Source: a virus. Taken from it: a stretch of 17,319 bases of DNA. The notes beneath the pieces were generated by a model. That model was not told where the DNA came from. It searched no databases and saw nothing but the letters and a program-made list of their open reading frames with translations. Within the stretch, counting starts at the first letter, position 1; each line of letters begins with the position of its first letter. The stretch lies in UHGV virus genome UHGV-1706157; one strand, 5' to 3'. Below are positions 8,859-10,892 of the stretch, one piece after another. A program made the translations under genes and the position numbers.

Positions 8859-8934
8859 TGGTGGCCCCTACCGGACTTGAACCGGTGACCGTGCGATTAT
8901 GAGTCGCCAGCTCTAACCACTGAGCTAAAGGGCC
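8859..8934 (-). tRNA. trnI: tRNA-Ile (anticodon CAT, lysidine type) or tRNA-Met
   Basis: 76-nt cloverleaf on the minus strand with encoded CCA: GGCCCTTTAGCTCAGTGGTTAGAGCTGGCGACTCATAATCGCACGGTCACCGGTTCAAGTCCGGTAGGGGCCACCA. Anticodon loop CTCATAA. Acceptor, D and anticodon arms closely resemble E. coli ileX as recalled. Confidence 0.85.
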
Positions 8935-8961
8935 GGATTACTGCCAATTTTGCTTACGCTT

Positions 8962-9789
8962 TTATTTCACCGGAACAAACGGAACAGCGGTATTACTGGT
9001 CATATACTGCGGTAATGTACCGTTCCATTTGTTGATCGCTTCCAACTCCATAACACCGGGGTTCTGGCGCAGAGCTTCACCACGTAAACGAATGGCATCA
9101 GCTTCGGCCTGGGCTTTTGTGCGAATAGCATCAGCCTGTCCGGCAGCTTCCGCGCGCAGCATGTTGGCCTCTGCTTCACGTTGTTTGACCTCTTGCTCGC
9201 GTTGCAGGGTTTTTTGGTTTGCCGTGACTTTGGCGTTAATACTGTCAATAACTGTTGGCGGGTATTCTGGCTTACCTACATAAGAGAGGCTCATCACCTG
9301 AATGCCGATTGGCGTCATTTCTTCCTGAATGTCTTTAAGGGCTGCATCAAGCAATTCAGATTTGCCACCGTCGATAAATTTGTCGGTGGTCATTTTGCTG
9401 GCTAACCGGTTCAGAGCATCTGCAACCTTCTGGCGTAGATCGGTATCAGTAATATCATCTACACCTTTGCGATAGGTCTGAAATACCGTTGTGACTTTTG
9501 CTGGATCAACCTTGTAGGCTACGCCGATGTGGTAACCAATGGTTGTTCCGTCGCTCATCTGGAAGCTGAACGGCTCATCGTATGTCTTCATTTGCTTAAA
9601 GGTCGGGAAGATATAAACTTCAGTATTCAAGCCTGTCCAGTAGCGACCAACGCCAACTACTTCACCGATACCTTTATCATCCCCCAGCTTATTTACTTTG
9701 ATCCCTACGTTACCTGGCTCTACCCGATCGCATCCGGTCAGACATAAAGAACCCAAAATAATCGCTGCACTAATCAACGTTTTTTTCAT
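8962..9789 (-). CDS. plp: lipoprotein (lipobox signal peptide)
   Basis: 275-aa ORF, ATG start. N-terminus MKKTLISAAIILGSLCLTGCDR has a positive n-region, hydrophobic core and lipobox L-T-G-C. C-terminal region is Ala/Glu/Arg-rich and coiled-coil-like. Confidence 0.8.
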   Translation of the reverse strand: MKKTLISAAIILGSLCLTGCDRVEPGNVGIKVNKLGDDKGIGEVVGVGRYWTGLNTEVYIFPTFKQMKTYDEPFSFQMSDGTTIGYHIGVAYKVDPAKVTTVFQTYRKGVDDITDTDLRQKVADALNRLASKMTTDKFIDGGKSELLDAALKDIQEEMTPIGIQVMSLSYVGKPEYPPTVIDSINAKVTANQKTLQREQEVKQREAEANMLRAEAAGQADAIRTKAQAEADAIRLRGEALRQNPGVMELEAINKWNGTLPQYMTSNTAVPFVPVK

Positions 9790-10006
9790 TAATTAATTTC
9801 CTGGTTTTTTCACGAAAAAAGACTACTGCGAAAGCCGGGTAAATGAGCGCGAGAAGGACTCCCAACAATACAAGTATTGTGCTGTTAGATGAGATCATAT
9901 TTGGCAAAAGCCAAACATACAGAACCAGTGACACAATCAAACAGAGGACGGCATAAATATATAACCGCACCCATAGCGTTCGACATTTGTTCGGATTGTT
10001 CTGCAT
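9770..10006 (-). CDS. upl: small inner-membrane protein (two predicted TM helices)
   Basis: 78-aa ORF, ATG with GGAG SD. Two hydrophobic stretches (LYIYAVLCLIVSLVLYVWLL and ILVLLGVLLALIYPAFAVVFF). 3' end overlaps the lipoprotein gene start by 20 nt. Confidence 0.55.
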   Translation of the reverse strand: MQNNPNKCRTLWVRLYIYAVLCLIVSLVLYVWLLPNMISSNSTILVLLGVLLALIYPAFAVVFFREKTRKLINEKNVD

Positions 10007-10166
10007 CCTCTCACTCCATTATTTAACGAATAAAAAAGCTGCGGTGCCGGGTGCCTCCCGGTGTCCTTTGGCTGGTTATCCACCGTGGACGGGGAAACAA
10101 GGAGAAATGAATGGACTGATATAACCATTTCCCCGCGTGCGCTTAGCCGCATTCACCGCAACGGAA

Positions 10167-10234
10167 AGAGCATTCTTGGTGGACCTGTAGATTGGGATAT
10201 GAACCCGTTACAGGAGAATGCTCTTACCTGTTAC
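10167..10234 (-). repeat. structured hairpin element C (outer 10-bp stem enclosing a T-arm-like hairpin and an NCCA-like tail)
   Basis: Perfect inverted repeat AGAGCATTCT (10167-10176) / AGAATGCTCT (10225-10234). The enclosed minus-strand sequence CCTGTAACGGGTTCATATCCCAATCTACAGGTCCACCA has a 6-bp stem, a GGG-TTCATAT-CCC hairpin and ends in CCACCA. Confidence 0.35.
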
Positions 10235-10430
10235 GTGCTCCGTTTCGTGGAGCTAACGGCGGGTGATCGGGCCGCACCAGGCTGGACTTATTTCAGCGTT
10301 ATGCTCATGCCAGAGAATCAAACTGTGATGGTCGGTGCTGAACTCCGACACAGGGTTGTAGCAAGCCCCGCAAAGCGCGCACTACTGTAGTTGCGGCACA
10401 TCAGCCTGTGCATTCACCACAATGTTGAGA

Positions 10431-10508
10431 ACACTGGTTGTCACGCTGCAACGCAACATTTATTCGTAGATTGGGATATGACCCCGTTACGCCAGTGTTC
10501 TCAACGTT
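10431..10508 (-). repeat. structured hairpin element B (17-bp outer stem enclosing a copy of the 25-bp T-arm-like repeat)
   Basis: Inverted repeat AATGTTGAGAACACTGG (10431-10447) / CCAGTGTTCTCAACGTT (10492-10508), 16 of 17 paired. It encloses GTAGATTGGGATATGACCCCGTTAC (10466-10490), which matches 10197-10221 at 24/25. Confidence 0.35.
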
Positions 10509-10650
10509 GTAGTGCCGGTTACGGTTCCGGCCAGGCCTCTTCCTCAACGGGGTGTTCTCCATACGGACTACCGTTTATTGGTCGTTCCTGCGGTTTATGT
10601 TGTGAAGCCAGATGCTTATCTTCTGGTTGCTTCAAAGAGCTGCACTTCAT

Positions 10651-10738
10651 CACAACGGTAAGGGTACTTCGTAGGGATTCGAACCCTCTGCCAAGCTCGG
10701 CGATCTCCGACGTCGCAAAATACCCTTACCTGTTGTGC
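10651..10738 (-). ncRNA. tRNA-like element A (canonical T-arm GGGTTCGAATCCC inside a ~15-bp outer stem); possible decayed tRNA or processing structure
   Basis: Minus strand, immediately 3' of tRNA-Thr: CACAACAGGTAAGGGTA ... CAGAGGGTTCGAATCCCTACGAAGTACCCTTACCGTTGTG. The T-loop is textbook, but no canonical acceptor, D or anticodon arm could be folded by hand. Confidence 0.3.
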
Positions 10739-10814
10739 TGGTGCCGATTAACGGACTCGAACCGCTGACATCCTGCTTACAAGGCAGGCGCTCTACCAAC
10801 TGAGCTAAACCGGC
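10739..10814 (-). tRNA. trnT: tRNA-Thr (anticodon TGT)
   Basis: 76-nt cloverleaf with encoded CCA: GCCGGTTTAGCTCAGTTGGTAGAGCGCCTGCCTTGTAAGCAGGATGTCAGCGGTTCGAGTCCGTTAATCGGCACCA. All four stems pair; anticodon loop CTTGTAA. Confidence 0.9.
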
Positions 10815-10816
10815 AT

Positions 10817-10892
10817 TGGCGATGGTGGATGGATTTGAACCATCGACCCGTTGATTAACAGTCAACCGCTCTAACCGCTGAGCTACACCATC
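10817..10892 (-). tRNA. trnA: tRNA-Asn (anticodon GTT)
   Basis: 76-nt cloverleaf with encoded CCA: GATGGTGTAGCTCAGCGGTTAGAGCGGTTGACTGTTAATCAACGGGTCGATGGTTCAAATCCATCCACCATCGCCA. Anticodon loop CTGTTAA. Separated from tRNA-Thr by 2 nt. Confidence 0.9.

Follow-up and report, generated by a model that had tools for sequence, protein, structure and literature searches.

Three tRNA genes in the C1-controlled ban operon of a P1-like phage-plasmid: putative roles in decoding supply and counter-defense, and a tmRNA-like RNA in the operon leader

We analyzed a 17,319-nucleotide stretch of UHGV virus genome UHGV-1706157 (the window), in which an initial annotation, made from the letters alone, had proposed three phage tRNA genes (Asn-GTT, Thr-TGT, and Ile-CAT) within a repressor-controlled operon that includes a DnaB-like helicase. 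ARAGORN called three tRNA genes in the window and no others; all are encoded on the minus strand and have the anticodon at position 34. The proposed coordinates were reproduced exactly, and the proposed identities held. The adjacent pair and the third gene lie on the helicase strand as proposed; the spacing between them, given as 1.9 kb, measured 1.8 kb. The elements of the unit are as follows.

10817..10892, minus strand: tRNA-Asn(GUU), P1 trnA (ARAGORN; Rfam, 74.5 bits; identical to trnA of NC_005856)
10739..10814, minus strand: tRNA-Thr(UGU), P1 trnT (ARAGORN; Rfam, 72.9 bits)
8859..8934, minus strand: tRNA-Ile2 (CAU), P1 trnI (ARAGORN; Rfam, 64.7 bits; tRNA-ile2 in the P1 record)
11546..11575, minus strand: promoter P1ban and bivalent C1 operator Op72/Oban (operator scan; annotation of NC_005856 and P7)
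7208..8578, minus strand: ban, DnaB-like replicative helicase (Pfam; P1 annotation)

All three tRNA genes exceeded the RF00005 gathering score of 29 bits (E ≤ 2.4e-12), and each encodes its CCA end. The tRNA-Asn has discriminator G73 and the anticodon arm GUUGA/CUGUUAA/UCAAC and is 65% identical to K-12 asnT. The tRNA-Thr, 81.6% identical to K-12 thrU, has G1-C72, C2-G71, and G35U36, and its anticodon arm (CCUGC/CUUGUAA/GCAGG) carries G39. The proposal that the CAT gene encodes an Ile rather than a Met tRNA was borne out: the tRNA shares 89.5% identity with K-12 ileX versus 71.4% with metT, and the TilS determinants C4-G69 and C5-G68 are present in its acceptor stem (GGCCCUU/AGGGGCC). It also has A73, C29-G41, and one G27.A43 mismatch, and because it has G1-C72, an initiator tRNA is excluded. 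Judged by these nucleotides, the CAU tRNA is tRNA-Ile2 of the ileX/ileY type, not tRNA-Met, and it presumably reads AUA after host TilS has introduced lysidine. The tRNA-Met label given to it by ARAGORN and in several GenBank records is a consequence of naming by anticodon only. The anticodon loops of all three tRNAs are the same as those of the host, and the established synthetase identity elements and the 3′ CCA are intact in all three, fitting functional genes rather than pseudogenes.

By sequence identity, the window is part of a P1-like phage-plasmid (Punavirus). Positions 8500 to 11300 are 100% identical to Punavirus P1 MH422554.1, and the full window is 99.5% identical to that record across 98% of its length; MH422554.1, the nearest record, has no annotated tRNA genes. 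The window tRNA sequences are identical to trnA, trnT, and trnI of reference P1 (NC_005856), where the order is dmt, Obanab (formerly Op72ab) with P1ban and P2ban, a "dicF-like region," trnA, trnT, plp/upl on the opposite strand, tciA-tciB-tciC, trnI (tRNA-Ile2), ban, and dbn. In the P7 record (AF503408), the tRNA genes are described as regulated by Op(ban). The D6 record places the tRNAs on the wrong strand. P1- and P7-like plasmids are routinely described with "Asn, Thr, Met" tRNAs, and a paper on a P7-like plasmid gives the identical trio (PMC5786510). We regard it as very likely that the three genes are P1 trnA, trnT, and trnI and that they are placed in the ban operon; the tRNAs, their operator, and the operon are already known and have stood in reference annotation for two decades.

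The initial annotation had also placed a perfect C1-type operator over the promoter of this same-strand operon, in agreement with the P1 and P7 annotation and with our operator scan. P1ban has its −35 element (TTGCTC) at 11574-11569 and its −10 element (TAATAT) at 11551-11546, as annotated in the P1 record. Operator half a matches the C1 consensus ATTGCTCTAATAAATTT at 17/17 positions (11559-11575, minus strand), half b is an inverted partner matching at 15/17 (11548-11564, plus strand), and both halves overlap the promoter, the operator as a whole covering its −35 and −10 elements. Four C1-type operator matches were found in the window, while shuffled sequences average 0.07 per whole window. 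Since curated records put ban under the control of Op72 and ban lies 3′ of all the other elements, P1ban transcripts would have to cross the tRNA genes; early, repressor-controlled synthesis of the tRNAs can soundly be inferred from this arrangement. A further site that resembles a C1 operator (14835-14851, minus strand, 16/17) has a position that fits Op68/Odmt, upstream of uhr-hrdC-dmt, so transcription from that C1-controlled promoter could also enter the tRNA region. Another operator-like site (1323-1339, plus strand, 15/17) lies close to the tail-gene block.

E. coli decodes AUA and ACA with low-abundance tRNAs. Codon usage was compared between the 98 coding sequences (CDS) of MH422554.1 and 38 K-12 CDS (15,653 codons), with the following frequencies per 1000 codons.

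ATA: phage 10.5 versus host 4.5 (odds, 2.32; P = 1.5e-11)
ACA: phage 15.6 versus host 9.1 (odds, 1.72; P = 8e-9)
AAT: phage 24.0 versus host 16.6 (odds, 1.45; P = 3e-7)
AAC: phage 23.5 versus host 23.3 (odds, 1.01; P = 0.87)

A comparison of AUA, ACA, and AAC had been proposed as a check on the initial annotation; the skew held for AUA and ACA but not for AAC, with the other Asn codon, AAU, enriched 1.45-fold. Because AUA, ACA, and AAU are enriched, codon supplementation stays viable. By phage/host ratio, ATA, ACA, and AAT rank 4, 8, and 11 of 61 codons, and we roughly estimate the chance of such ranks at a few percent if account is taken of the choice of the best codon among one, three, and two cognates, respectively. 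Enrichment is strongest in the tail-fiber genes, up to 4 times the host level (ACA, 34 to 39 per 1000; Asn codons, 70 to 80 per 1000), and the highest ATA density, 33.5, is that of baseplate gene 5, which lies in the window. TCA is enriched as well (odds, 1.76), matching the Ser(UGA) tRNA of P7 and D6.

Overall, the locus is probably best explained as a C1-controlled P1 tRNA unit that adds decoding capacity. In a lysogen, C1 would hold the ban operon off. Upon infection or induction, a long transcript would pass through a DicF-type terminator, structured RNAs, and the tRNAs into ban, and host RNase P, RNase E, and exonucleases would free the tRNAs from it. The tRNAs would then raise the decoding of AUA, ACA, and AAY, codons that the phage uses at 1.4 to 2.3 times the host level. 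That added capacity for these codons during lytic growth is the main benefit is a narrower claim, to which we give about an even chance. As a further, nonexclusive benefit, the phage Thr tRNA may replace host tRNA-Thr(UGU) destroyed by Toprim tRNases.

Several observations weigh against this reading. The codon data come from a 99.5%-identical relative, and the 38-gene host sample includes highly expressed genes. AGA, AGG, and CGA are more enriched than the codons of the phage tRNAs, yet there is no phage tRNA-Arg, and AUA density is equal in late and other genes. For the Asn tRNA, the supply argument is weak, as AAC shows no enrichment and there are four asn genes in E. coli. P1ban was not called by the sigma-70 scan, because its −35 element matches at only 3/6 positions, and the curated annotation was used instead. 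There are also two terminator-like structures between P1ban and the downstream tRNA and ban genes.

A role in counter-defense is suggested by work on tRNA-cutting nucleases. The PARIS effector AriB cuts and depletes the E. coli Lys(UUU) tRNA along with those for Thr(UGU) and Asn(GUU) at U36AAUC|A41; a U39-to-A change abolishes cleavage, AriB also recognizes distal tRNA features, the Lys, Thr, and Asn tRNAs of T5 jointly neutralize PARIS, and a resistant tRNA-Lys(UUU) was found necessary for bypass (PMC12409363). P2 Old kills chiefly through cleavage of tRNA-Thr(UGU), which it cuts where a CNG motif is paired (positions 28-30/40-42), and phage Thr(UGU) tRNAs rescue cells from it, with the resistant phage tRNAs combining an altered CNG with a shortened anticodon stem (PMC12445682). 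T5 tRNA-Tyr defeats retron-Eco7 (PtuAB) (PMC11555353). By analogy with the PARIS and Old data, an anti-defense function is now better motivated than by the colicin E5 argument with which it was originally proposed. The anticodon-stem sequences (positions 27-31/39-43) compare as follows.

Thr(UGU), K-12 thrU: ACUGA/UCAGU (host reference)
Thr(UGU), window and P1: CCUGC/GCAGG (positions 36-41, UAAGCA, as in T5; CNG and 5-bp stem intact)
Thr(UGU), T5: GUUGC/GCAUC (G39)
Thr(UGU), T4-like UFV11: CCUCA/UGAGG (G40)
Thr(UGU), Ro157c2YLVW and mEp506: GUCGC/GCGAA (CNG broken; 27-43 mismatch)
Asn(GUU), K-12 asnT: GCGGA/UCCGU (host reference)
Asn(GUU), window and P1: GUUGA/UCAAC (UAAUC|A site intact)
Asn(GUU), Ro157c2YLVW type: GUUGG/CCAAC (C39)

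Within the window, only the Thr tRNA shows a change of the AriB-escape type (G39). The Asn tRNA has a host-type site and looks AriB sensitive by its sequence, while the Asn tRNAs of T5, UFV11, mEp506, and one Kuttervirus locus differ from the host at position 39. The window Thr arm retains C28UG30/C40AG42 and all 5 pairs, unlike the Old-resistant phage tRNAs; with its CUG/CAG motif and full stem, it is predicted to be Old sensitive. ARAGORN detected no tRNA-Lys(UUU) in the window, and none was found in the P1-like loci scanned. The anti-defense case, as far as anticodon arms can speak to it, would be strongest for Thr(UGU) and for the alleles of sister phages and less so for the window alleles. 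The initial interpretation as a whole was partly upheld: the tRNA identities, operon, and codon skew stood, and at the sequence level its anti-defense part found a counterpart in Thr G39 only. MH422554.1 also carries, outside the window (77764-78270), a gene annotated "3′-phosphatase, 5′-polynucleotide kinase"; tRNA repair activity of the T4 Pnk type would bear on anticodon nucleases.

The array is polymorphic among relatives. We conducted a haplotype census of 105 P1-like loci from IMG/VR, of which a subset (n = 40) had at least 3.5 kb of downstream flank. The window haplotype occurs in 54/105 loci, and 37/105 add a tRNA-Tyr(GUA) between Asn and Thr, the 3′ half of which resembles T5 tRNA-Tyr. 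This tRNA-Tyr is accompanied by the C39 Asn allele in 37/37 loci, and the C39 allele is present in 44/105 overall. There are two Thr alleles among P1-like phages; the altered one (GUCGC/GCGAA, with CNG broken and a 27-43 mismatch) was found in 21/105 loci and shows the two-factor pattern of Old resistance. The Asn-Thr-Ile2 set is present in 24/40 long-flank loci, and an 87-nt Ser(UGA) tRNA, also carried by P7 and D6, is present in 11/40. Only 5 sequence variants were found among 44 copies of tRNA-Ile2, which is nearly invariant. In PLSDB, 716 records match the Asn-Thr segment (354 at ≥99%), and the Asn-Tyr-Thr version is mostly covered by 237 plasmids. Polymorphism at nuclease-read positions would fit an arms race; general mosaicism could also yield the same pattern. 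Similar arrays occur in other phages. The lambdoid phage mEp506 (locus L212, 601-756) has an Asn-Thr tandem between the Q antiterminator and holin genes, and T4-like UFV11 (locus L211, 653-1071) has adjacent Asn, Tyr, Ile2(CAU), Thr, and Ser tRNAs, the species of the P1-like pan-array. The sequences suggest a mobile pool of phage tRNAs common to P1-like, lambdoid, and T4-like phages.

Beyond the tRNAs, the operon leader and the intervals around the Asn-Thr pair carry several structured elements.

11358..11503, minus strand: dicF-like leader segment (homology to Qin; terminator; "dicF-like region" of P1)
~11179..11355, minus strand: tmRNA-like module, unannotated (tag frame; covariation; subthreshold Rfam tmRNA matches)
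11086-11186, minus strand: hairpin D (folding; common arms)
10640-10740, minus strand: hairpin C (folding; common arms)
10408-10516, minus strand: hairpin B (folding; common arms)
10148-10236, minus strand: hairpin A (folding; common arms)
10030..10165, minus strand: STnc100-like element (Rfam RF02076, 37.8 bits versus a gathering score of 47)

The leader segment from 11503 to 11409 resembles the Qin prophage sequence that directly precedes dicF (78% identity; 76/98; E = 1e-15); in Qin, dicF is positioned between ydfC and dicB. After 11409, about 50 nt of differing sequence follow, ending in a strong terminator-like hairpin (11385-11366) and a U7 run. DicF itself was rejected as an assignment: Rfam gave no DicF (RF00039) match, and the alignment covers only sequence upstream of dicF. 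From its position and terminator, the ~50-nt segment may be a DicF-type small RNA (sRNA) with a different seed and the first product of P1ban.

The tmRNA-like module came to light through a noncoding stretch of ~90 nt between this terminator and tRNA-Asn that recurs in 318 phage records from unrelated families at 75 to 90% identity and is almost never annotated in them. The module is also present in at least 120 IMG/VR contigs (P1-like, Drexlerviridae, Kuttervirus, and others), and in other phages it is placed in tRNA arrays. It comprises a 5′ hairpin, a resume-type GCA (11297-11295), a UAA stop (11267-11265) in a hairpin loop, and, in its 3′ part, two H-type pseudoknots. The tag region, ...UAAAU GCA AAC GAU GAU CUG AUG AUG GUA GCG GCC UAA, reads ANDDLMMVAA*. 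Among the 139 loci recovered by a degenerate pattern, the tag frame is 10 codons plus stop in 139/139, with 14 tag variants that include ANDDVVLMAA, ANEEMYLAVA, and ANDNTFLAVA. Of six tag peptides looked for, none was mentioned in the literature searched.

The structure of the module was tested on an alignment of 53 distinct sequences. Of all cells, 87% were paired, versus 33 to 46% with slid partners, and compensatory change was seen in 16/35 pairs. There were 182 compensatory cells versus 60 ± 9 in shuffled alignments, and 0/500 shuffles reached the observed value; one pseudoknot stem was 100% paired, with 4/4 pairs covarying. No tRNA-like domain was detected, and the tmRNA mode of ARAGORN was negative on the window and on 88 variants. 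Rfam tmRNA families scored 14 to 26 bits on the module versus gathering scores of 47 to 84; in each locus tried, these subthreshold matches fell at one and the same position and strand. When a profile of the module was aligned with E. coli ssrA by nhmmer, the tag was in register, but the match was not significant (3.8 bits; E = 2.3). A regular expression for a T-arm plus the acceptor 3′ strand matched downstream in Kuttervirus loci only. From the ARAGORN, regular-expression, and nhmmer results, the element was not classed as a tmRNA: a tRNA-like domain, with a G3.U70 acceptor stem, a T-arm, and CCA, was not detected, and the element stays below gathering scores. A small protein gene was also considered and rejected as the cause of conservation of the 90-nt stretch; the window has a 93-amino-acid (aa) plus-strand open reading frame (ORF), but in Cronobacter phage ESP2949-1 the stretch is spanned by no ORF of ≥25 aa. 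Pfam gave no matches for an 80-aa ORF at 11014-11256. A 2014 census listed phage ssrA only for mycobacteriophages and Bacillus phage G (PMC4131195). The T5 tRNA region likewise has annotated "stable" and "tRNA-like" RNAs. We consider the tmRNA-like module the most novel lead in the window, with a function that is putative.

Hairpins A to D flank the Asn-Thr pair as a set. Their arms share the pattern ACAGGUAAG(G/A)G...C(C/U)CUU(A/U)CCGUUG and take the form ACAGGUAAGGG.../...CCCUUACCGUUG, with variable loops and a ΔG of −37 to −55 kcal/mol; the loop of hairpin C contains the T-arm-like GGGUUCGAAUCCC. In unrelated phages, hairpins of this type (ACAGGUAAGAGCAUU...AGUGCUCUUUCCGUUGUGGUGAAUGC) flank the tmRNA-like module and tRNAs. 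Covariation among P1-like loci was limited to 0 to 1 compensatory pairs per hairpin and is uninformative, because the P1-like copies are too alike. The possibility that the hairpins are decayed copies of the tRNA-Ser(UGA) of P7 and D6 was rejected, as blastn found no similarity. Farther downstream, the STnc100-like element has a long-range closing stem followed by a terminator-like U6 run near 10032. The fold z score for 10025-10240 is −5.3, and 28 variants show 6 compensatory pairs. The element lies directly upstream of the cargo genes, and RF02076 reaches its gathering score (48.7 bits) in a Kuttervirus locus beside Ile2- and Asn-type tRNAs. Plus-strand ORFs at 10061-10390 and 10391-10768 correspond to P1 upl and plp ("putative lipoprotein") and run antisense to hairpins A to C. 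Their overlap with tRNA-Thr is 30 nt, their start codons are GTG or TTG, and they would encode products rich in Cys, Arg, Ser, and His, in which the repetition of "VDWDM.PL" results from a DNA repeat. Pfam gave no matches for either product, and on these features the ORFs look like spurious calls across structured RNA.

The cargo between the tRNAs is as follows.

8962..10006, minus strand: cargo genes (Pfam; blastn breakpoints)

It consists of a 78-aa membrane ORF with two transmembrane segments (9770-10006) and an SPFH/Band-7 lipoprotein gene (8962-9789; PF01145, E = 9.7e-31) that is ~87% identical to genes of Stx and lambdoid phages. By blastn, 8944-10031 substitutes for tciA-tciB-tciC of reference P1, an arrangement also found in RCS47 and Ro157c2YLVW, and the breakpoints of the swap fall a few bases from tRNA-Ile2 and in the U-run of the STnc100-like element. 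The Pfam matches of Ban are DnaB_C (PF03796, E = 5e-108) and DnaB (PF00772, E = 2.7e-35). ban is the last well-characterized gene of the operon, with dbn (6210-7208) next.

Decoding supply and counter-defense are not mutually exclusive. We rank supply first and take counter-defense as a serious but less likely candidate for the main function. The Asn-Thr pair would then replace host tRNAs cut by AriB of P4-type satellites and by Old of P2-type prophages, both of which compete with P1 in E. coli, and the phage tRNAs would work because their anticodon stems are unlike those of the host. Thr(UGU) and Asn(GUU) are among the main AriB targets, and Thr(UGU) is the prime target of Old. The window Thr tRNA is identical to that of T5 across positions 36 to 41, and the Thr(UGU) tRNAs of five phage sources (P1, the Ro157c2/mEp506 allele, T5, and UFV11) differ from thrU at positions 39 to 41. 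The polymorphism of the array (Tyr addition in 37/105 loci, C39 Asn in 44/105, altered Thr in 21), the recurrence of the Asn-Thr tandem in lambdoid mEp506, and the poor account that codon supply gives of the Asn tRNA point the same way. However, the window Asn tRNA keeps U39-C40-A41, a perfect site for AriB, the CNG and full 5-bp stem of the Thr tRNA predict sensitivity to Old, the tRNA-Lys(UUU) needed according to the PARIS study is absent from the P1-like loci, and the three anticodon loops equal those of the host. G39 may merely mark a nonenterobacterial ancestry of the gene, and tRNA-Ile2 is without a known nuclease among those treated in the literature consulted. The literature searched, including Rousset 2022, was found to be silent as to whether PARIS or Old restricts P1. 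Because AriB reads distal features, moreover, local motifs do not decide cleavage.

Two further explanations concern whether the tRNAs belong to the C1 unit and whether they benefit P1 at all. If P1ban transcripts ended at the 11385-11366 terminator, the tRNAs would in practice stand outside the C1 unit, and they, and perhaps ban, would be made from unrecognized internal or late promoters; we consider this account improbable. The hairpin is 7 to 8 bp long and GC rich, has a UUCG loop and a U7 run, and lies 150 to 180 nt past the promoter, another structured element, followed by U6, lies near 10032, and the P7 record predicts late promoters within the upstream methylase gene. Against these stand the curated P1 and P7 records, which put ban, 3′ of both structures, under Op72/Oban, and a sigma-70 scan of the minus strand from 11366 to 8935, which found no promoter-like site. 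The homologous dicF region of Qin also lies within an operon, upstream of dicB, so a midoperon terminator need not silence the genes downstream. That the tRNAs hitchhike on a mobile RNA island or are decaying within it, at no benefit to P1, could be suspected from the mosaic nature of the region, pieces of which are common to unrelated phages, and from the exchange of the adjacent cargo among P1 relatives. We find this highly implausible: all three tRNAs have canonical cloverleaves, high covariance-model scores, encoded CCA ends, and intact identity elements, they are retained in hundreds of phage-plasmids (by the PLSDB counts above), and tRNA-Ile2 is limited to its 5 variants.

Added decoding capacity from a C1-controlled unit is thus the explanation that we favor. 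A broader view, which we think unlikely but worth stating, is that in its 5′ part the ban operon holds an early "translation RNA island" directed against the defenses of the host and of rival elements rather than a helicase leader with convenience tRNAs. The Asn-Thr cassette, to which sister phages add Tyr and altered alleles, would stand in for tRNAs lost to Old and PARIS, and the tmRNA-like RNA, conserved in hundreds of enterobacterial phages, would act in, or subvert, ribosome rescue upon tRNA depletion. P1 holds two of the three anticodons hit by PARIS, including Thr(UGU), which is hit hardest by P2 Old, and the allelic series of P1-like phages at nuclease-read nucleotides offers a test of tRNA anti-defense in a classic temperate system. 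It has long been asked why so few tRNAs are retained by temperate phages, and the locus is relevant to that question too. If functional, the tmRNA-like RNA and the hairpin cassettes that accompany phage tRNA arrays would represent a new class of phage translation-related RNA.

The closest known systems are P1 (NC_005856/AF234172) and P7 (AF503408), in which the tRNA sequences, operator sequence, and strand are the same as in the window, as is the gene order of dmt, operator/promoter, dicF-like region, Asn, Thr, cargo, Ile2, ban, and dbn. The window differs from reference P1 at 8944-10031, where the SPFH lipoprotein and small membrane protein genes replace tciA-tciB-tciC. In the dicB operon of Qin (ydfABC-dicF-dicB), an sRNA that carries a terminator of its own lies among the operon genes, and the window has a terminator-ended ~50-nt segment at the DicF position with genes downstream; unlike in Qin, this segment has no similarity to DicF. 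Resemblance to tmRNA (SsrA) lies in the 10-codon tag that begins GCA-AAC-GA... and ends in Ala codons (the E. coli tag is ANDENYALAA), in the stop codon within a hairpin loop, and in the pseudoknots that follow, whereas the window element has no detected tRNA-like domain.

In lambdoid and Stx phages, tRNAs occupy the interval from the Q antiterminator to the lysis or toxin genes. As in the window, a small number of tRNAs that read A-rich or rare codons sit inside a regulated phage operon, but regulation there is by late antitermination rather than by early C1 repression, and mEp506 differs from the window in its altered Thr and Asn arms. For the T5 tRNAs that act against PARIS and retron-Eco7 and the phage Thr tRNAs that act against Old, the window shares two of the three AriB-target anticodons, and relatives of the window phage carry a tRNA-Tyr resembling that of T5 in its 3′ half. 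Unlike T5, the window has no Lys tRNA, its Asn site is of the host type, and its Old motif is intact, and its tRNAs are repressor controlled in a temperate phage rather than placed under the strong early promoters of a virulent one.

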